Below, piece after piece: positions 4,101-33,828 of a stretch of 64,000 nt of DNA. The notes beneath the pieces were generated by a model. The model ran no database searches. It saw only the letters and a list, made by a program, of their open reading frames with translations, and was not told the DNA's origin. The position numbers were made by a program, and so were the translations under genes. Where the stretch lies: NCBI GenBank assembly GCA_013177895.1, contig JABLXV010000007.1, positions 23,992 to 87,991 on the forward strand. The letters are read 5' to 3'. The DNA comes from Brevinematales bacterium (lineage in GTDB: Bacteria > Spirochaetota > Brevinematia > Brevinematales > GWF1-51-8). Position 1 is the stretch's first letter, and the number at the start of each line of letters is the position of its first letter.

Positions 4101-4975
4101 GTATTCCATGCCGTATTGCCGACGCTTGTGAAACCGTTAGCATTCACTTTGAGTTTTACCGAAGTAATAGTATATCCCGATACCGCCGCGGTTCCGGCAA
4201 CGTTGATGGAAGTCAAATTCGTAGCGATCCCGCTGACAGGCGACGTGATGGTCACCGAGGGATTTCCCGCGATATAGTTAACGGTTACCATATTGGTAGT
4301 CGAGATATTGTTCGACATATCGATACCGTAGACGCGTATCGTATGCGCGCCGGTCGCTGAGAGCGCGATATTCGTCGACCATGCGCTGCCCGCTACCGAC
4401 ACGGGAGTGAATCCGCCGCCGTCGAGCTTGAGGTACACGGCCTTGATGCCGGACTTGTCATCGGTCGCGATACCTGACGCGGTAATCGCATTCCCGACTA
4501 TCTGGTTATTGGTCGGCGAGGTAATCGAGACTACCGGGGCGACCTTATCGTAATCGTTGGTATTCGTAATAAACATCTGGACGATATAAACGAATACTTT
4601 CGGGCTATAAGCGAATTCATTCTGTGTATTGATAGCCTCCGCCCAGAGGTAATAGTACCCGCCGTTGGATATCGCGATATCGCCCTCGAAGGTCGAGAGC
4701 GTACCGGAATAAACCGTCGTCGGGAACACGTTAGTCGGCCCGCCGTAGATGACCGAGGCTTTTATCAGCACCGCGCTGACTCCCGCCTCGTCGTAGCAGG
4801 TTCCCGACACATGCCCGTTGATATATACCAACTGGTTATTAGTCGGGTCGCTGATAGCGGCTACCCCCGCGGAAAGTTTATTCAGTACATCGCGGCCGAT
4901 TTCGCAGGACATCATTGTCCATCCCGCTGTAAAAATTACCAGTGCCGCGGATATTTTCTTCATCATTCCTTTCAT
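1157..4975 (-). CDS. Cell-surface GH13 alpha-glucan enzyme: lipoprotein signal, Ig-like stalk, CBM25/26-like starch-binding module, CBM48-like module and a GH13 catalytic domain of pullulanase/debranching type
   Basis: The ORF is 1272 aa, with an ATG preceded by AAGGAG. It has the lipobox TAGWTMMSC and repeated units of about 90 aa (SITSPTNNQIV.., TITSPVSG.., ISITSPVNN..). The segment MTVYFKKPAVWAGAYIHYWP resembles a starch-binding module. VEFSIWWKDA..VYVTGDFNGW..SEYKF resembles CBM48. GH13 conserved regions are GITAVELMP, AVIIDMVFNHT, DGFRYDATH, YVYENL and YVESHDE. Confidence 0.85.
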   Translation of the reverse strand: MKGMMKKISAALVIFTAGWTMMSCEIGRDVLNKLSAGVAAISDPTNNQLVYINGHVSGTCYDEAGVSAVLIKASVIYGGPTNVFPTTVYSGTLSTFEGDIAISNGGYYYLWAEAINTQNEFAYSPKVFVYIVQMFITNTNDYDKVAPVVSITSPTNNQIVGNAITASGIATDDKSGIKAVYLKLDGGGFTPVSVAGSAWSTNIALSATGAHTIRVYGIDMSNNISTTNMVTVNYIAGNPSVTITSPVSGIATNLTSINVAGTAAVSGYTITSVKLKVNANGFTSVGNTAWNTNGVPLTEGTNSFTALAIASSGKSNTSPVVKILRDTTKPTASFTYPSGGATVAAASFTITGSASDGALGSGISKVYLAVNSGFVPVTGTTSWSKSVTLPDGAYTLYVYSVDKVGLVSATNQISITVAAPDTTRPEISITSPVNNISTTNAAIDVSGTASDNKAVTSVYVAVNTGAFAAATGTTSWSKNVALVLGTNTIKAYSQDAAGNKSTTNSIKVIKNNSGTGMTVYFKKPAVWAGAYIHYWPTGSVWASCPAMTSIGSGWYSYYMNDRTSTSCLFKNVSGTNVLYQTADLQRTGDGWYWTNNQWYDSNPEDVSLPTVNISSPTDYREVTSDTLNIMGTAAGGGLTGVYVKVNAGGFVLATGTLSWLKNVSLDMGTNTIEVYAQGSSQQSTHKFVHVVRKTGSGSDWPGSYTGKLGANLFNDGVEFSIWWKDAVVSAVYVTGDFNGWGQTPLTRITSGANTDVWWAFIPGVSAGSEYKFIGIKRTGGSTPVADPYAKYNRYSSGSSVVCDQAYAWTDGSWSRPGWSYYIVYELHPKDFTSADSTVPAAHKGKYLGIVDKLTYLTNLGITAVELMPPSEFPDAGYSWGYNTSLYMSVESGYAQNPSQGQDGLNEFKQMVNACHQYGVAVIIDMVFNHTANNDNWLWTIDNVSYFSGTTPWGNKLYTASDIVKRLGKDTIEYFMNECHVDGFRYDATHTDFMDHGFIYELKSYAMAIDPNVYFVYENLPNQSDLKTWGAQWSDGYHDNGVNALCGWNGATANTMTKYIFYGKDDGWAGSPVESLNYVESHDEDTLGRLFGFAGYDDGTKKARTRLAVVMLATSLGNPMIWMGQEFLRAREGQDIDELPLDWSGYTTYNDIYQYYAGILKLRKFNPALRQPTEAYFAFQYKPWEAGKDTMVVGYSLGSPTPADDIFVVLLNFDRYNSKTVWVGFPENGTWKKVASETQVNPNGIAGQDISVTTLGANLTVGANSAVIYMKVR

Positions 4976-4992: not shown

Positions 4993-7900
4993 TTATTGAA
5001 GGTAGGGGCTGGTCAACCCTACATCCGACAGCTTAAACGTACCGTTCAGGACATATACCCTGAGGTTACCCTGACCCGAACAGTTGACGGTGATGGAGCC
5101 GCCGTTAGCGATACTCTTCACATCGCCGGTCACTATATCTTTATAGGTTCCGCCGGGGAGGTTGTTAAAGGTCGCCCCGCCGGATATAGCTACGATACAG
5201 AAGCTGTCGACTCCGCCTACGGTGAAGCGTTTTTTAAACGCCAGGCCGCCGGAGACGTTCTCGGTGGAATACTGCCCTTTCTGGAGAGCCGGCACATGAT
5301 GGCGTATCCAGTTGAGACACTGTATATGTTTGGCGAGCGGGTAATTCAGCGTATTCGCCATCTCTCCGGTCGCGTTATTCCATACCGCGAAATCGGTAAC
5401 ATTAACGCTGCCCTCGATATGCGCGCCGAAGTACGCGCGGCCGGTGTTTTCGAGAGGCATATTCGGGCCGACGTCGATAGGACAGCCCTTCTTAAACTCG
5501 ATTTCCGACCCGTAGAAGATACACGGTATGCCGCGGAATGTGAACATCAGGGAAAGGTTCTCCGCCCATGTCGCCTGCGATCCCACGAAACGTTTCGTGC
5601 TGTCCGGCGAATCCGGCGCGTAATCGTGCGAGTCCACATAGGTCACGTTCCATGTCGCGTCGTTATAGGTATAATCCCACCCGTGTACGCCCCATGCCGT
5701 CCCGGCATCCTGGAAATTCCAATGCATGCAGAAGTCGATGACCTCTAATCCGGAGGACTTCGAGTAATCCGGGGTATGGTAGTTATTCCCGTAGAGTAAA
5801 TGGTTATCGCTGGACTGCTGCGAGCCCGGGTCGATATTGTCGTACCAGCATGCGTATGCCGCGTCGGTATCGCTCATCCCGTCGTAGTTATGGTTTTCCT
5901 TCCACGTATAGAACGGGGGCGAAACCGGCGGAAGGTTATTATTCCAAATCTGGCGGTAACGCGAGCAGACCTCGCCGAAGATGAAGAAGTTCGGCCCGCC
6001 GCGAAGTTTGAACGCCGGAATAAAGTACTTATTGAAGATGAAGCGGCTGATATGCTTGACCGTATCCACACGGAAAGCGTCCACTCCCATATCGATCATT
6101 TTATTATAAGCGTCGATCAGGTACTGGCGTGTCACGGGATTTTCCGTATTGAAGTCCTGGCAGTCGCCCGCTATAGACGTACTCTGCACGGTATAGCCTT
6201 CCCAGTCTCCGCACCAGCCCTTATGATAGAGCGGGCTGTTCTGTATCTGGGTGAAACGGCTGACATACTGTTCGTTCGGGGTAAGGGTATAATCGTTGGT
6301 CGGGGTAAACAGTCCGACCGCGCCCCAGTTCCCGGAATGGTTCAGCACGATGTCGACCACGAGCTTGATATCCCTCGCGTGACATTCGTTAATCAGTCTC
6401 TGGAGGTCGTATCCGGCCGATTCATAACGGGGATCGACGATAGTAAAGTCATACCCGTGATACCCGTGATAATCGTAACCGCTCATATTCTGTATGACAG
6501 GGGTGATCCAGACCGCGCTGAAACCGAGCGCTTTGATATAGTCGAGCTTCTCGATCAAGCCCTTAAAGTCGCCTCTCCATGACGGGTCGTTGGGATAGTT
6601 CCCGGCATGCTCGTCATCCCATCCGAACGCGTTGTTCGCGGGATCGCCGTCATAGAAGCGGGTTGTAATCAAGAAATAGATCGTCTCCTCGCGGAAGTCG
6701 CCGCGCGGGAGTATATTCGCGACAGTCACCTTAACCGTATCGCTATGAGTAGCCCCGGCGTCGTCGCGGACAGTCAGCGTCCAAGTGAACGGACTGCCGT
6801 TCGTATCGGTATAGGTATAAACCGGCGATACGCCGCTCAGGGTATGCCCCGCGCCGTCCGTCCATGTATAGGATACGATTGTCCCGTTGGGATCGTATGA
6901 CTGCGCGCCGTTAAACTGTAACGGCAGGCCGGACACCGCGAAGATATCGCTTCCGGCATTCGCTACAGGCGGCACGTTCGCGTTCACAGTGGAGACCGTC
7001 ACTACCGCCGATACCGTGGAGTTCATCACGTCGTACGCCTTCGCGGTCAACTGGTGCGAACCGTTGGCGACAAACGCGCTGTTCCATGTAATCGAATAAG
7101 GCGCGGTCGTATCGTTGGTAATCAGCTTATTATCGACATAGAACTCGACCTTAGTCACCCCGATATTGTCGGATGCATCGGCCGAAACGGTAACATTACC
7201 GGTAAGGCCGGTGGCGCCGTTCGCGGGAGCGGTCAGGCTCACGGTCGGGGGCACCGTATCGTCGGGGTTCTGGTCGTACCATACCCCTTCTTTATACCAA
7301 CCCTCTTTATCGCGGGTCAGGTCTACCGATTGGGGAGAACCGTTGTTATTGAAGACAATTTTAGCATAAGTCTGGTTGGTGAGCACATAGTAATACCAGT
7401 CGCCGCCTTCGCTCGCCATCAGCTTGCCCGGCCATGTGGTCGCGAGCGCGCCGGGAAGCGTAGCCCAGTAATGGATATATGCTTTCGTCCATGACGTAGG
7501 TTTCTTGAAATGCACCGCCAGTCCGGGAGCCTGCTGCTGAGGCTGAATAGTAATATTAACCGTCCTGATCGCGCTGGTGTTCCCGGCCTTATCCTTCGAA
7601 TAAACCTGTATGGTATAGGTGTTCGGCGGAAGCGACGTGGTGAACGACCAGTTCGCCGAGGAAGAAACTTTTACAAAATCTCCGCCGGTGGAGAGATAGA
7701 TTCCCTCCAAACCGGTGCCGGTGTCGGCGGCAGTCCCGGAGAAAGTGATATTCTGGTTCTGGGTGGCATACCCGTCGGAGGGAGACGAGATAGCCGCGGT
7801 GGGAGCCTGCGTATCGAGAATAACCTTGACGGACGGCGAAACCGCTGTCTTGGTATTCGCGGCGGTCGCGCGGGCGATCAGTACGTTCGTACCTTCGGAA

Positions 7901-8784
7901 AGAACTACGCTATTGGTCATCCAGTCGGTGTTGCCGACGTTTTTAAAGGAATTGGAATTTAATTTCAATTCTACCAATGTGATGGACGAACCCTCGACAG
8001 TAACCGAACCGCCCACGTTAATGGAAGCGAGCTTCACCATGGAGCCGTCGGCAGGCGAATCGATAACTATGGAAGGAGTACCGCTGTCATAGTTGACGTT
8101 GAGTGTATTGGTAGAGGTCGCGTTACCCGCGAGGTCGGCTGCGTAGACCTTCACCGTATGAAGGCCGGCCACAGTGACCGAGAGGTTGATCGACCAGATG
8201 CCGCCGTTCAGAGAGGCGGGCACGAAGGACTGGGAATCAAGTTTCACCCAGACATTTTTCACCCCGACCCCGTCGTCAGAGACGGAACCGTTGACCGTGA
8301 ACGTCGACCCGACGTTCTGGAAGTCGGAAGGCGCGAGGATTTCCAGTACCGGAGGCGTAATATCCTCTCCGCCCTGCATCACAGCCGCGGCGTTTACAAC
8401 AGGACTGTAAGCGGTCAGTCCCTCGGCATCCTGAACTTCGAGCCACATCTGGTATTTTCCGTATTCTATGAAATAATTGTCCCCCTGTATGATGGTCAGG
8501 GGATAACCGTCGAAATCAACGGTCAGCTTATTAGTCACGCCGCTGTTGGAAACAGTGTAGACCAGCTTGACGCGCTTTACTCCGCTCACATTATAAGTAC
8601 TCCCTAGGTAGGAGTAATTAAGAAGGAGCTGCTGATTATTGGTAGGACGGCTGAGAGTGACAACGAAAGGAAGTTGATCCGCGGGGATCAGCTTTTTCTG
8701 TAAAAGGTCTTCGACGGGGCCGCAGGACATCGCTAAAAAGGCAAAAACCGCGGCGAAGAAGATACGGGATACCTGATTTAACAT
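4993..8784 (-). CDS. Cell-surface GH13 alpha-amylase: lipoprotein signal, Ig-like stalk, starch-binding-like module, Big/PKD-like domains and a GH13 catalytic domain
   Basis: The ORF-track entry (4993..8814) begins at a TTG. I prefer the ATG at 8784, which has GGAGG 5 nt upstream and gives MLNQVSRIFFAAVFAFLAMSC (lipobox). It has stalk repeats paralogous to 1157..4975 and the module LAVHFKKPTSWTKAYIHYW. A PKD-like stretch reads VANAGSD..YDPNGTIVSYTW. GH13 regions are IYFLITTRFYDGDP, GDFKGLIEKLDYIKALGFSAVWITPV, YHGYHGYD, LVVDIVLNHSG, DAFRVDTVKHI, IFGEV and YVDSHD. Confidence 0.85.
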   Translation of the reverse strand: MLNQVSRIFFAAVFAFLAMSCGPVEDLLQKKLIPADQLPFVVTLSRPTNNQQLLLNYSYLGSTYNVSGVKRVKLVYTVSNSGVTNKLTVDFDGYPLTIIQGDNYFIEYGKYQMWLEVQDAEGLTAYSPVVNAAAVMQGGEDITPPVLEILAPSDFQNVGSTFTVNGSVSDDGVGVKNVWVKLDSQSFVPASLNGGIWSINLSVTVAGLHTVKVYAADLAGNATSTNTLNVNYDSGTPSIVIDSPADGSMVKLASINVGGSVTVEGSSITLVELKLNSNSFKNVGNTDWMTNSVVLSEGTNVLIARATAANTKTAVSPSVKVILDTQAPTAAISSPSDGYATQNQNITFSGTAADTGTGLEGIYLSTGGDFVKVSSSANWSFTTSLPPNTYTIQVYSKDKAGNTSAIRTVNITIQPQQQAPGLAVHFKKPTSWTKAYIHYWATLPGALATTWPGKLMASEGGDWYYYVLTNQTYAKIVFNNNGSPQSVDLTRDKEGWYKEGVWYDQNPDDTVPPTVSLTAPANGATGLTGNVTVSADASDNIGVTKVEFYVDNKLITNDTTAPYSITWNSAFVANGSHQLTAKAYDVMNSTVSAVVTVSTVNANVPPVANAGSDIFAVSGLPLQFNGAQSYDPNGTIVSYTWTDGAGHTLSGVSPVYTYTDTNGSPFTWTLTVRDDAGATHSDTVKVTVANILPRGDFREETIYFLITTRFYDGDPANNAFGWDDEHAGNYPNDPSWRGDFKGLIEKLDYIKALGFSAVWITPVIQNMSGYDYHGYHGYDFTIVDPRYESAGYDLQRLINECHARDIKLVVDIVLNHSGNWGAVGLFTPTNDYTLTPNEQYVSRFTQIQNSPLYHKGWCGDWEGYTVQSTSIAGDCQDFNTENPVTRQYLIDAYNKMIDMGVDAFRVDTVKHISRFIFNKYFIPAFKLRGGPNFFIFGEVCSRYRQIWNNNLPPVSPPFYTWKENHNYDGMSDTDAAYACWYDNIDPGSQQSSDNHLLYGNNYHTPDYSKSSGLEVIDFCMHWNFQDAGTAWGVHGWDYTYNDATWNVTYVDSHDYAPDSPDSTKRFVGSQATWAENLSLMFTFRGIPCIFYGSEIEFKKGCPIDVGPNMPLENTGRAYFGAHIEGSVNVTDFAVWNNATGEMANTLNYPLAKHIQCLNWIRHHVPALQKGQYSTENVSGGLAFKKRFTVGGVDSFCIVAISGGATFNNLPGGTYKDIVTGDVKSIANGGSITVNCSGQGNLRVYVLNGTFKLSDVGLTSPYLQ

Positions 8785-29854: not shown

Positions 29855-30010
29855 TGTCACTGCGATACCGCGCCAGAATTATTTTTAAAGCGCGGGAGAA
29901 GCAGTCTATTCAATCATTTACTGATATTAAAACAGATTGCTTCGGCTATGGTTCGTCAAGCTCACTATGACGCCTCGCCTGTCTACCTTCATAGAAGGCA
30001 GGCAATGACA
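29855..30010 (-). repeat. REP/MITE-like element of about 155 nt (inverted copy of 33151..33305)
   Basis: The reverse complement shares long blocks with 33151..33305: gtcattgc, gaggcgtcat.gtgagc, cgaaccatagccgaagcaatct.ttttaata, atagactgcttc.cccgcg and ggtatcgcagtgaca. Confidence 0.75.
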
Positions 30011-30541: not shown

Positions 30542-31888
30542 ATGCCTAAATCGAAAAGTTTATTTGTCTGCGGGGAATGCGGGTATAAAACCTCGAAATG
30601 GCTGGGGAAATGCCCGCAATGCGGAGAGTGGAATACCTTCATCGAGGAAATCGAATCGTCCGAACCCGCGCATCATCCGGCCGCCGTATCCGTTATTCAT
30701 CCTATCCCCATCGGCGAGGTCGAATACTCGGAAAGTTCCCGTATATTCACGAAAATAGACGAGCTTGACCGCGCGCTCGGGGGAATTGTCCCCGGGCAGG
30801 CCGTCCTCGTATCGGGCGAGCCGGGTATCGGGAAATCCACCCTGCTCCTCCAGACTGCCGGGGCTCTCGCGGTCAACCATACCGTATTCTACGTCAACGG
30901 CGAGGAGTCGAACCCGCAGGTAAAATCCCGAGCGTCGCGTCTCGGCCTGCAATCCAAGACCATGTACCTTTTCAACGAGAACAATCTCGACAGTATTATC
31001 GCGCGGGTTTCCGCCGATAAGCCGGACTTCCTGTTCGTCGATTCGCTCCAGACCCTCTACTCGCCGCGTTACGCGTCCCTGCCGGGCAGCGTCCTTCAGG
31101 TGCGGGAGTGCGCCCATGAGCTGATCTCGCTCTCGAAGGGGCTGGGCATCCCGGTGTTCCTCGTGAGCCATATCACTAAGGGCGGGGATATCGCCGGCCC
31201 GAAAATAGTCGAGCATCTGGTCGACACCGTACTCTATATAGAAACCGACACGCGCGGGTATTACCGTATCCTGCGCCCGCTGAAGAATAGATTTTTTACC
31301 ACCGAGGAGGTGGGGTTTTTCACCATGGGGGAGAACGGACTTGCGGGGATCGAGGATATTTCCACCGCGTTCACATCCATCCATAGCGGCGCGGTGAACG
31401 GGGTGTCCGTATTCCCGATGATCGAGGGGAACCGCGTGTTCCCGGTGGAGATTCAGGGTTTATGCGTCGCGTCGCAGTTCAGCTATCCCCGCCGCGCGGC
31501 CGACGGGATCGACCTGAACCGGCTCTATATGCTCGCGGCGATTATGGAGAAACGTCTGGGCGCAAACCTTGCCGCGTCGGATTTATATGTGAATATCACA
31601 GGCGGGTTGACTATCGACGATCCCGCGCTCGACCTCGCGGTCATTTTCGCGGTCTATTCGTCGCTCAAGGATAAGCCCGTATCGCTGGATACGATCGTAT
31701 TCGGGGAGGCCGGGTTGACCGGCGAGGTGCGCCCGGTGTTCAGGATGGAGAAACGGCTGGCTGAGGCGAAACGCCTCGGGTTCAAGCGCGCGGTGGCGCC
31801 GTATCAGCAGAAGGGGATCAAGCCGCCCGACGGGATAACCGTACTGCCGGTAAAGAGTATCGACGAGGGTATCGCGCTAATCGGATGA
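30542..31888 (+). CDS. radA: DNA repair protein RadA
   Basis: The ORF is 448 aa. It has the zinc ribbon CGECGYKTSKWLGKCPQCGEW, the Walker A motif GEPGIGKSTLLLQ and the RadA motif LKNRFF. A Lon-protease-like C-terminal domain is present. Confidence 0.95.
   Translation: MPKSKSLFVCGECGYKTSKWLGKCPQCGEWNTFIEEIESSEPAHHPAAVSVIHPIPIGEVEYSESSRIFTKIDELDRALGGIVPGQAVLVSGEPGIGKSTLLLQTAGALAVNHTVFYVNGEESNPQVKSRASRLGLQSKTMYLFNENNLDSIIARVSADKPDFLFVDSLQTLYSPRYASLPGSVLQVRECAHELISLSKGLGIPVFLVSHITKGGDIAGPKIVEHLVDTVLYIETDTRGYYRILRPLKNRFFTTEEVGFFTMGENGLAGIEDISTAFTSIHSGAVNGVSVFPMIEGNRVFPVEIQGLCVASQFSYPRRAADGIDLNRLYMLAAIMEKRLGANLAASDLYVNITGGLTIDDPALDLAVIFAVYSSLKDKPVSLDTIVFGEAGLTGEVRPVFRMEKRLAEAKRLGFKRAVAPYQQKGIKPPDGITVLPVKSIDEGIALIG
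31861..31888 (+). repeat. Left copy of a 28-nt direct repeat (the radA 3' terminus including its stop)
   Basis: The sequence cgacgagggtatcgcgctaatcggatga recurs at 32784..32811 with a single T/C difference that is synonymous for Gly. Confidence 0.9.
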
Positions 31889-31900
31889 ATCAAATCTAAA

Positions 31901-32041
31901 TCATAGATGCTTTTTTACTTTTACTACGATTATTATTACTACTACAACAATAGCAATAATAATCACAGCAGTTACAACTGAACTTACCGTATCTTGAATA
32001 GATTGCATAGCATTTGTAACATTATCAAGAAATTTATTCAT
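31901..32041 (-). CDS. Small single-pass membrane peptide (46 aa), AT-rich
   Basis: This ORF is below the ORF-track size cut-off. My translation gives MNKFLDNVTNAMQSIQDTVSSVVTAVIIIAIVVVVIIIVVKVKKHL. The RBS context is AAAAAAGGAGAAATT-ATG. A possible promoter reads TTGATA-17-TATAAC upstream on the minus strand. Confidence 0.5.
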   Translation of the reverse strand: MNKFLDNVTNAMQSIQDTVSSVVTAVIIIAIVVVVIIIVVKVKKHL

Positions 32042-32239
32042 AATTTCTCCTTTTTTATTATTTACGGTTATAACATCTTTATACTACTATATCAAGGTTA
32101 TATAATTATTATATAGAAATATTTATCTTCTATTCTTTTCCGCGTAAATCCGTCCAATCCGTGAAACCAGTGTGAAATTTTATGGGTCGATAAGAATAGA
32201 GTATGGTTTTAAAAACTCATTGCAACTCCTAAAAAAGAC

Positions 32240-32725
32240 AATCTTCATTTCTTTCTGAACGGCCAGAAAGAAATGAAGCAAAGAACCCCGCACAAGAATG
32301 CGGGACAAGCGAGCCGCCGCGCAAATAAAGCTTATAAGAAGTTCCGGGAAATCCGAGTCGGGCGTAACTCGCAAGCATGTTCCGTGCGAAGCGAAAGCAG
32401 GCCTACGTCGGACATACGCCCTTGTTCGGATTTCCCGGTAGTAAGAAGCGCTTTAAAGTGCGCGGACAGAACAACCGAAAGGCATAATTCTTTAGTAATT
32501 TTATATTTGGCTGTTCACCCCCGCCGCTGTGAGGCGACTTTTGCTAAGCGAAACGGAAAGAAACGCCGTTTGTTCGAGCCTTGATCTATCTCGCATCAGT
32601 GATTTCTCCCGCGGCGAGTTACGGCGTTTCCCGTTTCGCGCCCCTCTGCTTGAGAGCGTCATCCCGGCGGGAAACCTCTTTCTTTCGTTCTTTCTTTCTG
32701 GGTTCGCAGAAAGAAAGAACAATGG
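32240..32725. other. ORF-free, GC-rich, highly self-complementary element of about 0.5 kb with hairpin termini (candidate large structured ncRNA or MITE/PATE-like element)
   Basis: A perfect 15-bp hairpin lies at 32243-32278 (cttcatttctttctg/aacggc/cagaaagaaatgaag). A perfect 14-bp hairpin lies at 32687-32720 (gttctttctttctg/ggttcg/cagaaagaaagaac). The flanks interior to the two hairpins are inverted repeats of each other. A central 95-nt hairpin at 32344-32438 has 13-bp and 7-bp perfect stems. The only ORFs are low-complexity and basic. Confidence 0.5.
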
Positions 32726-32783
32726 CTTTTTATGTTCAAAAGGAGTTTTTGGAATCCCCTAGAGTATCATTGCTAAAATGGTT

Positions 32784-32811
32784 CGACGAGGGCATCGCGC
32801 TAATCGGATGA
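32784..32811 (+). repeat. Right copy of the 28-nt direct repeat (a duplicate of the radA 3' terminus)
   Basis: The sequence cgacgagggcatcgcgctaatcggatga matches 27 of 28 positions of 31861..31888. Weaker similarity extends about 10 nt further 5'. Confidence 0.9.
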
Positions 32812-32922
32812 TTTCTTTCCGCGGCGGACTATCGCGACAATGACGATTATTACAATGATCGCCGCAAATATGACCCCGACGCCCATGAGAAGTTCCGGCA
32901 ATCCTTCGAATATCCCAAACAT
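32800..32922 (-). CDS. Small single-pass membrane peptide (40 aa)
   Basis: My translation gives MFGIFEGLPELLMGVGVIFAAIIVIIVIVAIVRRGKKSSD, in frame over 123 nt, with GAGGGG upstream. The last four codons and the stop lie inside the right 28-nt repeat. Confidence 0.45.
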   Translation of the reverse strand: MFGIFEGLPELLMGVGVIFAAIIVIIVIVAIVRRGKKSSD

Positions 32923-32959
32923 AACTACCCCTCGGTAAGAAATAGAATTCTATATGCGA

Positions 32960-33094
32960 TCAGTCTTTTTTGCGCTTTGCCCTGACGACAATAACAACCG
33001 CAGCCGTTATGACGATCACCCCGGCAATAATTGAGATAACCAGAATCCGATTGGCATTGAAAAATTCGATAAACATGGCAGTAAAACTTGTCAT
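32960..33094 (-). CDS. Small single-pass membrane peptide (44 aa)
   Basis: My translation gives MTSFTAMFIEFFNANRILVISIIAGVIVITAAVVIVVRAKRKKD, in frame over 135 nt, with GAGGTG upstream. Confidence 0.45.
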   Translation of the reverse strand: MTSFTAMFIEFFNANRILVISIIAGVIVITAAVVIVVRAKRKKD

Positions 33095-33150
33095 ATACAC
33101 CTCGTATAAATAAAAGCCCCCCGGAAGGGCTTGTCGATAAACTGTTTTAT

Positions 33151-33305
33151 GTCATTGCGAGGCGTCATGGTGAGCACTTGTCCCGCGTTCAGCGGGATGT
33201 CGAACCATAGCCGAAGCAATCTATTTTAATACCATCTAAGGAATAAAATAGACTGCTTCACCCCGCGTAGCAAAAAATACTGCACCGCGGGGTATCGCAG
33301 TGACA
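33151..33305 (+). repeat. REP/MITE-like element of about 155 nt (same family as 29855..30010, 55290..55378 and 58552..58637)
   Basis: It contains gtcattgcgaggcgtcatggtgagc, ccatagccgaagcaatctatttt, atagactgcttcaccccgcg and ggtatcgcagtgaca. Internal hairpins include tcccgc/gttca/gcggga. Confidence 0.75.
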
Positions 33306-33372
33306 GAAAAAGATTGAATTTCTTTGTTCATCAACAAACCCGGAAACGGGAGGCTTTAAATAATAGTTATGC

Positions 33373-33828
33373 TTAGATGTTATTGAGCTTGCTCATTTCT
33401 GCGTTCGCTTTATCCTTGGTTTCCTTGCCCGCGGTCGGGTCGCTCACCACGTCCTTAAATTTTTTCATCGCCGCGCCCTTATAGGTCTCGATATCCTCGG
33501 GGGTAAAACCGTACTTCGGCTCCTTGATGTTCTCCTTGAGGAACTTCGCCACCAGCGCAAGAGCCTTGCCGGAATCGAGTTTGGTCAACGCCGTCGGGTT
33601 GGATTTTTCAGCGCTAAGCGCCGCCTTGAGCACCGCGATCACATTCTTATAGGCCGTATCGTCGAATTTATCCTTGACCGTGTTCTGCGGCTGAACCACC
33701 GCGTTCGTTTTACCAACCGTGGTATTGGTCTGTCCGCCGTCACCCGGTTTAACCGCGGTACCGCCGCAGGAGACAAGCGCCACCCCCACAGCCGCCATGA
33801 ATAGTATAGACATCGTAAATTTTTTCAT
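33373..33828 (-). CDS. Hypothetical lipoprotein
   Basis: The ORF is 151 aa with AGGAGG upstream and the lipobox GVALVSCGG. It is Lys-rich and helical. Confidence 0.6.
   Translation of the reverse strand: MKKFTMSILFMAAVGVALVSCGGTAVKPGDGGQTNTTVGKTNAVVQPQNTVKDKFDDTAYKNVIAVLKAALSAEKSNPTALTKLDSGKALALVAKFLKENIKEPKYGFTPEDIETYKGAAMKKFKDVVSDPTAGKETKDKANAEMSKLNNI

Follow-up and report, generated by a model that had tools for sequence, protein, structure and literature searches.

A 923-bp insertion between radA and a convergent peptide gene in a Brevinematales bacterium, and the structured repeat nested within it

The DNA analysed here, referred to below as the window, is a stretch of 64,000 nucleotides (nt) from Brevinematales bacterium (assembly GCA_013177895.1, contig JABLXV010000007.1, positions 23,992 to 87,991 of the forward strand), and our subject is what stands at the 3' end of its radA gene. 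Between radA and a small convergent gene for a membrane peptide lies a segment of 923 base pairs (bp) that ends, on its right, in a second copy of the radA terminus, and that carries an AT-rich module and a copy of a structured, non-coding repeat. The features of the locus are as follows, with positions counted in the window.

30542-31888, plus strand: radA, an open reading frame (ORF) of 448 amino acids (aa) with Pfam matches to Zn_ribbon_LapB, AAA_25 and ChlI
31860-31888, no strand assigned: left copy of the direct repeat, 29 nt, the end of radA with its TGA stop as the last triplet
31889-32120, minus strand: AT-rich module, 23.3% guanine plus cytosine (GC), absent from the relative GWF1_49_6, where 117 unrelated nt stand instead
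31901-32041, minus strand: orphan membrane-peptide gene of 46 codons, with a putative ribosome-binding site and a promoter-like site
32121-32204, no strand assigned: segment common to the region downstream of radA in GWF1_49_6, including the right arm of an imperfect palindrome with 29-nt arms
32197-32204, no strand assigned: left copy of a possible 8-bp target-site duplication, TAGAGTAT, abutting the repeat copy
32205-32759, no strand assigned: nested repeat copy, 555 nt, non-coding and structured, with terminal inverted repeats at its two ends in the manner of a miniature inverted-repeat transposable element (MITE)
32243-32322, minus strand: hairpin unit 1, with its stem at 32243-32278, a purine/pyrimidine tract, a small inserted hairpin and a GGCGGC complementary to the loop (60.1 bits)
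32669-32721, plus strand: hairpin unit 2, made up of AACC, TCTTTCTTTC, a stem at 32687-32720 with the loop GGTTCG, and a T-rich tail (45.8 bits)
32760-32782, no strand assigned: filler of 23 nt between the repeat and the right 29-mer, its first 8 nt (32760-32767) being the right copy of TAGAGTAT
32783-32811, no strand assigned: right copy of the direct repeat, 29 nt, whose last 12 nt (32800-32811) encode the S-S-D-stop of the minus-strand peptide gene
32800-32922, minus strand: membrane-peptide gene of 40 codons, the ortholog of a 42-codon gene that overlaps radA in Brevinematales bacterium DeMMO6_14
32960-33100, minus strand: downstream neighbour, a second small membrane-peptide gene of 46 codons and similar build

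The segment 31889-32811 is a genuine insertion between convergent genes that once overlapped by 12 nt, because DeMMO6_14 (GCA_020059465.1; locus L003, with its JGI twin L004) has the predicted empty site. In that genome, radA (6758-8101), whose product is 92% identical to RadA of the window, is overlapped by the 42-codon minus-strand gene (8090-8218), the junction reads ...ATCGCGCTAATCGGATGA|TTTTTTCCTGCGG..., the 29-mer region is present as a single copy, and once 31889-32811 is taken out, the window aligns with L003 in unbroken order through the junction (697 columns, 78% identity). The first-pass annotation of this DNA, made from the letters alone, had anticipated both an empty site in relatives and an ancestral layout in which radA converged on and overlapped the peptide gene, and this is the arrangement found. 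The more distant Spirochaetes bacterium GWF1_51_8, in which RadA is 79% identical, has a different gene, DUF4300, after radA. Only three relatives have the radA locus in the protein databases; beyond them there is one Logan contig, 88% identical, which stops short of the junction.

The repeat that bounds the insertion, TCGACGAGGG[T/C]ATCGCGCTAATCGGATGA, is 29 nt long rather than the 28 nt first assigned to it, and the single, synonymous difference that had been described is confirmed: the mismatch (T at 31870, C at 32793) is at the third base of a Gly codon when read in frame with radA. As annotated, the left copy closes with the radA stop; the right copy does provide the stop of the peptide gene 32800-32922, together with three sense codons (12 nt in all) and not four. 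Allowing up to 3 mismatches, the 29-mer occurs at 2 sites in the window, against 0 expected from 100 shuffles, and it had 0 matches in the metagenome contig collection scanned, so that it flanks nothing else in either. The annotation was also right that no integrase or transposase lies within or beside the insert, since the ~6-7 kb to its left and to its right encode no integrase, transposase or recombinase. The site lacks a tRNA or tmRNA target, and no ORF of the insert has a Pfam match. Composition changes along the insert, from 23.3% GC at 31889-32120, through 35.7% at 32121-32204, to 48.5% at 32205-32759, where the window mean is 51.5%; thus the sharp contrast claimed earlier holds for the AT-rich part, and the block that had been called GC-rich is so only relative to that part. 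This block had also been described as ORF-free and self-complementary, of which the second half is borne out by the folding of 32130-32790 compared with shuffled sequences (z = -8.3 and -6.4 for the two strands), whereas ORFs of up to 103 aa are present in it, none of them conserved or matched in Pfam.

The interior of the insertion is composite, as is apparent from the closest relative, GWF1_49_6 (L083), which has an orthologous, occupied locus with a radA region ~90% identical to that of the window. The order there is the radA stop, 117 nt without a counterpart in the window, 61-89 shared nt and the same repeat copy (85% identity), the shared left flank matching window 32139-32227 at 89-92% (BLAST, 92% over 32139-32199). 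The 46-codon peptide gene is not at this locus, and the AT-rich module is placed outside the original insert because it is missing from this orthologous occupied site. The difference between the two genomes is observed directly; its direction we infer, the AT-rich cassette probably being a later, lineage-specific replacement in the lineage of the window. Between radA and the repeat, GWF1_49_6 has an imperfect palindrome with 29-nt arms (GATCAAACGGATAACACGGATTAACGCGG ... CCGCATAAATCCGTCCAATCCGTGGAATC; L083 528-705, minus strand), of which the window keeps only the right arm (32139-32170); the palindrome is intact only in GWF1_49_6, and no further copy was found in the fetched loci. A Logan contig identical to the window (SRR6186653) stops inside the first hairpin (the end of L001, window ~32271), and another Logan contig of the same organism (L128) ends at window ~33230, inside a perfect hairpin. 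Because these short-read contigs end in perfect hairpins, such junctions, the right one of GWF1_49_6 among them, are systematically missing from public assemblies of the clade.

The gene on the AT-rich module was described in the first-pass annotation as having its own ribosome-binding site and promoter, and candidates for both are in place: the ORF 31901-32041 on the minus strand is preceded at 7 nt by AGGAG and by a promoter-like TTGATA-17-TATAAC, both seen by eye; a consensus promoter scan omitted the latter because its -10 hexamer ends in C. Searches of 5.8 billion clustered proteins and of 1.84 billion representatives gave no homolog of its product, and the cassette has no DNA match in viral or metagenome contigs. 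The product is a candidate small toxin, possibly type I-like, or membrane modulator. The genes 31901-32041, 32800-32922 and 32960-33100 stand in tandem, all on the minus strand, and encode single-helix peptides of 40-46 aa with basic C-termini. Two of the three are conserved in DeMMO6_14, and the resemblance among them is one of build, namely a short N-terminus, one hydrophobic helix and a basic tail, with an identity of 20-30% that is compositional and leaves no invariant columns.

The larger part of the insertion is the repeat copy 32205-32759, which has imperfect terminal inverted repeats of ~20-40 nt (GGGCAGTTCTAAAAACT... / ...AGTTTTTAGAACTCCC), outside which similarity to other copies drops sharply. 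By BLAST, 13 or more loci in GWF1_51_8, 5 or more in GWF1_49_6 and 1 or more in DeMMO6_14 carry copies of 70-86% identity, many of them diverged or truncated, and there is no second copy in the window. Scanning for the hairpin pattern TTTCTTTCTG-N5-7-CAGAAAGAAA in one genome per species gave at least 120 loci. Stops or frameshifts in other copies interrupt the ORF that is longest in the window copy (103 aa), for which Pfam has no match. Seven copies fold to a consensus of 118 pairs, and compensatory changes occur at 17 of these. An autonomous partner sharing the terminal inverted repeats was not found, and no protein family recurs beside 108 hairpin sites (~0.9 Mb of fetched loci); searched with the window copy and one Pseudoflavonifractor copy, plasmids gave no match. 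At one locus of Spirochaetota MFD01476 (L115, ~1299-2990), an IS1182-like element is nested in a copy of the hairpin repeat and encodes a 495-aa transposase with DUF772 and DDE_Tnp_1_6 domains. As a mobilising partner of the repeat this transposase was ruled out, since it belongs to a separate nested element with ends of its own, CAGACTGTGTGAAAACTCAGCA.

Long direct repeats also bracket other copies of the repeat in GWF1_51_8. One copy, between cysD and cysN (L037), lies within a 16-nt direct repeat (4194-4209 and 4890-4905) with fillers of 75 and 69 nt; another (L028) within an 18-nt repeat (~7322-7339 and 7936-7953); and a third (L088), itself truncated and with a junction in an 11-nt microhomology, within a 70-nt repeat (2183-2252 and 2695-2764) that ends exactly at the stop codon of a gene, with a convergent gene 6 nt away. 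These bracketing repeats are host sequence, unrelated to one another. Between them and the terminal inverted repeats lies filler, itself unrelated, for which no source locus was found among the fetched loci. In controls with mismatched flanks, repeats did not exceed 14 nt in 56 pairs, and reached 16 nt or more in 5 of 324. A 22-nt flank repeat at a further locus (L073) was dismissed, as it sits in repetitive coding sequence of the RHS/YD type. That unlike repeats occur at unlike sites argues against a conserved attachment core and for duplicated target DNA. A duplication that ends exactly at a stop codon, as in the window and at L088, would be expected if DNA of a relative had recombined homologously within the gene and illegitimately beyond it.

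The best account of these observations, to which we give about an even chance of being right, is an insertion accompanied by a long target duplication, a structured repeat nested in it, and an orphan peptide cassette acquired later. A non-coding segment of ~0.2 kb would have entered directly after the radA stop in an ancestor common with GWF1_49_6, and 29 bp across the overlap of radA and the peptide gene would have been duplicated, both 29-mers then being target DNA and not attachment sites. Both genes would have stayed intact because the event duplicated their overlap, and only such an event leaves them so. Widely staggered breaks, template switching, or one-sided homologous plus illegitimate recombination with the DNA of a relative that has a different region downstream of radA are candidate routes. 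The repeat 32205-32759 would then have transposed into this ~0.2-kb segment, perhaps leaving the 8-bp TAGAGTAT; the copy itself is observed, and its place in the order of events is the likely one. Finally, the AT-rich cassette may have replaced ~117 nt beside radA, truncating the palindrome that is intact in GWF1_49_6. Such a layered history is favoured because of the filler and the 8-bp flank repeat.

Several points weigh against this account. The 8-bp TAGAGTAT is a perfect repeat only in the window; GWF1_49_6 differs by a cluster of 5 nt, with CGGGC in place of the AGTAT of the window, and other copies of the repeat have flank repeats of 4-7 nt or none. The contig of GWF1_49_6 ends inside the repeat and its right junction is unassembled, so the 29-bp duplication may be older or younger than the split of the two lineages. 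The routes proposed for the first step are candidates, and the 29-bp repeat is just under the working threshold of >30 bp used for comparable insertions (PMC2853133). Lastly, long flanking repeats accompany this repeat family recurrently, and may be made by insertion of the repeat itself.

This last possibility, which we rank second because the long repeats never abut the ends of the element, and which we consider unlikely, is that the repeat family, moving with some flanking DNA, itself makes long and variable target duplications, the 29-bp repeat being the footprint of its arrival; the mechanism could resemble that of IS1634, IS1549 or IS1630, or proceed through an RNA or single-stranded intermediate. 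It would explain why 4 of ~10 well-bounded Brevinematales copies (the window, L037, L028 and L088) are bracketed by repeats of 16-70 nt, well above the controls, and transposases with long variable duplications do exist (8-514 bp, PMC2266710; 19-26 bp, PMC2853133). Truncation of many copies, and the junction of L088 at an 11-nt microhomology, are also in keeping with it. However, filler of 3-316 nt, unrelated from one locus to another, always lies between the long repeats and the terminal inverted repeats, and the window copy has an 8-bp flank repeat of its own. Moreover, neither a transposase nor a reverse transcriptase recurs beside the 108 hairpin sites, the only transposase between two hairpins being that of the nested IS1182-like element with its different ends, and copies in Pseudoflavonifractor have sharp ends without long flank repeats.

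The first-pass annotation had favoured a single miniature, satellite or decayed element integrated site-specifically at the 3' end of radA and carrying a replacement terminus. On this view the 29-mers would be attL and attR, and the recombinase would have been lost or act in trans. Integration of this kind leaves direct repeats by which the gene terminus is restored, and relatives with an empty site, as are seen here, and the AT-rich module does look foreign (23% against 51.5% GC). We nevertheless judge this improbable, and somewhat more so than duplication by the repeat itself: no integrase or recombinase is encoded in the flanking ~6-7 kb, a multi-copy repeat of the chromosome makes up more than half of the composite interior, the occupied site in GWF1_49_6 lacks the AT-rich module, the 29-mer is at no other site in the window or the metagenome scan, and other copies of the repeat carry different, unrelated long flank repeats. 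In addition, the hairpin motif gave 6 matches in 2.9 million viral contigs, which is near the chance level, and the repeat had no plasmid match. An old local tandem duplication of the radA terminus and the peptide gene, in which the left peptide copy diverged into the 46-codon gene and later insertions came in between, is already disfavoured and seems to us very improbable indeed. It would place the 46-codon gene where it is found, in the same orientation and with the same build, and there is a weak 17-nt similarity near register, but the peptides share only their compositional resemblance, the gene is missing at the GWF1_49_6 locus, sequence beyond the two repeats is otherwise unrelated, and GC is 23% against ~47% while the flanking 29-mers are identical at 28 of 29 positions.

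An insertion with long target duplication, as we favour here, can be compared with a class of insertions from Nobusato et al. 2000, as cited in Furuta, Abe & Kobayashi 2010 (PMC2853133). In this class, the long repeats are unique and may overlap the 3' end of a gene, the inserts are low in GC, and mobility genes are lacking; in an example from H. influenzae, a 46-bp repeat overlaps 15 bp of a gene end (PMC2853133). As in that class, the radA insert is present in one genome and absent from a relative that has the repeat in single copy, its repeat is longer than ordinary transposon duplications, and the insert is low in GC (23-36% at 31889-32204) and free of mobility genes. It differs in that the cases described carry restriction-modification genes and were chosen with repeats >30 bp (PMC2853133), whereas the repeat here is 29 bp, above the usual <10 bp and the 19-26 bp of IS1630 but just below that cut-off, and the cargo consists of non-coding filler, a nested repeat and a 46-codon orphan gene. 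Insertion sequences of the IS1634, IS1549 and IS1630 type also make long variable duplications (8-514 bp, PMC2266710; 19-26 bp for IS1630, PMC2853133), but these abut the ends of the element and require an encoded transposase, whereas filler intervenes at radA and there is no transposase. With prophages and genomic islands that integrate at the 3' ends of tRNA, tmRNA and protein genes, the radA insert shares bounding repeats, a retained gene terminus and an empty site resembling attB; unlike these, it has no recombinase, a core not found elsewhere in the window or the metagenome scan, and a composite interior only partly common to the closest relative, and related repeat copies have unrelated flank repeats.

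The nested repeat 32205-32759 is best compared with MITEs such as Correia/NEMIS and ERIC, which it resembles in being ~0.5 kb long, non-coding, intergenic, bounded by terminal inverted repeats and strongly structured, and in having many diverged or truncated copies per genome and a possible 8-bp target duplication. It is unlike them in that no autonomous partner was found and in that target duplications are inconsistent across copies. An element of the IS200/IS605 type, which the two similar hairpins had suggested, would have subterminal hairpins on the same strand at both ends, a TnpA/TnpB partner, and neither terminal inverted repeats nor a target duplication. It was ruled out, since the hairpin units are inverted inside terminal inverted repeats, no TnpA or TnpB is nearby and there is no IS605-type match in Rfam. 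We know of no MITE for which a hairpin unit conserved across phyla, with covariation of loop and flank, has been described at each end.

The hairpin unit (~45 nt) consists of the hairpin TTTCTTTCTG-N6-CAGAAAGAAA, a (TTTC)n tract and a segment of 4-5 nt complementary to the loop. Written in the pyrimidine orientation, its parts are X, (TCTTTCTTTG) and then the stem, the loop and the stem again, X standing for the reverse complement of the 4-5 bases with which the loop begins; in hairpin unit 2 of the window, for example, AACC is complementary to GGTT of the loop. The window copy has a unit at both ends with X inward, such that each, read outward, gives the hairpin and then a T-rich tail. The same hairpin occurs in many copies per genome, on non-coding repeats of 0.3-1 kb, in Brevinematales, Oscillospiraceae, Pseudoflavonifractor, Megasphaera, Burkholderiales and others (L007-L126). 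The ends of these repeats are lineage-specific, those of Pseudoflavonifractor being TAAATTTTAGTTTA terminal inverted repeats without long flank repeats. Rfam 15 had no match at gathering score in the whole window, and matches at chance level only at E up to 10 in 31700-33400; applied to the repeats at 18 loci in other phyla, it returned nothing relevant, and a literature search with the hairpin sequence gave unrelated primer matches only.

Between families X and the loop change together, as GCCG/CGGC, GGTT/AACC, ATCA/TGAT, GACAC/GTGTC, TGCA/TGCA and CACG/CGTG, and the loop complement is at the expected place in 33 of 52 families, compared with 8.2 ± 2.4 (maximum 19) when loops are permuted. 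In a fixed-register alignment of 22 units, the helix of the pseudoknot that X and the loop would form is 72.7% paired, with double changes at 3 of its 5 pairs, and the stem extension covaries at 5 of 5 pairs. The covariation score in these units is 0.304; shuffles score 0.090, with 0 of 500 attaining 0.304, and slid partners 0.092 at the most. Telomerase RNA and the SAM-II riboswitch contain H-type RNA pseudoknots whose major groove takes up a pyrimidine strand, and triple helices are known from the MALAT1/ENE type. The unit would resemble such pseudoknots, were an RNA made from it, in that its loop would pair with a segment beyond a pyrimidine tract of 9-10 nt. In parallel Hoogsteen register, this tract, TCTTTCTTT, matches the purine arm AGAAAGAAA perfectly. 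A triple helix stays speculation, since (TTTC)n reads trivially as a direct repeat and as a mirror repeat alike, and since the paired stem extension leaves no spacer for a strand to fold back. In elements with two units, the tracts can instead pair with each other. It is a tentative and on balance doubtful suggestion that the unit marks an undescribed class of structured, non-autonomous elements that spread in several phyla with long variable target duplications, the radA insertion being one such event rather than a passive pile of unrelated ones. The elements of such a class may act as folded RNA or as a single strand, for instance through a pseudoknotted, perhaps triple-helical, 3'-end or terminator module.

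The genes within ~6-7 kb of the insert encode TonB/ExbBD, a Plug-domain receptor, a LapA-like protein, RadA, small peptides and lipoprotein-like proteins, along with a HEAT protein, cytidylate kinase, prephenate dehydrogenase and DAHP synthase. Another small repeat, ~105 nt long and with the hairpin GAAGCAATCTATTTTA...TAAAATAGACTGCTTC, is present twice in the window (33198-33305 and ~29855-29958) in inverted orientation and with 79% identity. Its copies are intergenic and stand on both sides of the block formed by the LapA-like gene, radA and the peptide genes, similar sequences being found at L003, L120, L112 and L020, and Logan contigs also break at it.

A signature of attL and attR at the 3' end of a gene, of textbook appearance, can arise without site-specific recombination, because an insertion between overlapping convergent genes survives only if the overlap is duplicated. 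The radA insert is a small example, without restriction-modification genes and from a poorly sampled order of spirochaetes, for the little-understood class of insertions with long target duplication, and the three bracketed copies in GWF1_51_8 (L037, L028 and L088) are further examples that could help work on its mechanism. As an event at a gene end, the insertion is a modest variant of what is already known, and the hairpin unit is the more interesting lead. If the unit is a functional module of RNA or single-stranded DNA, it would be a new and widespread structured motif carried on mobile repeats.

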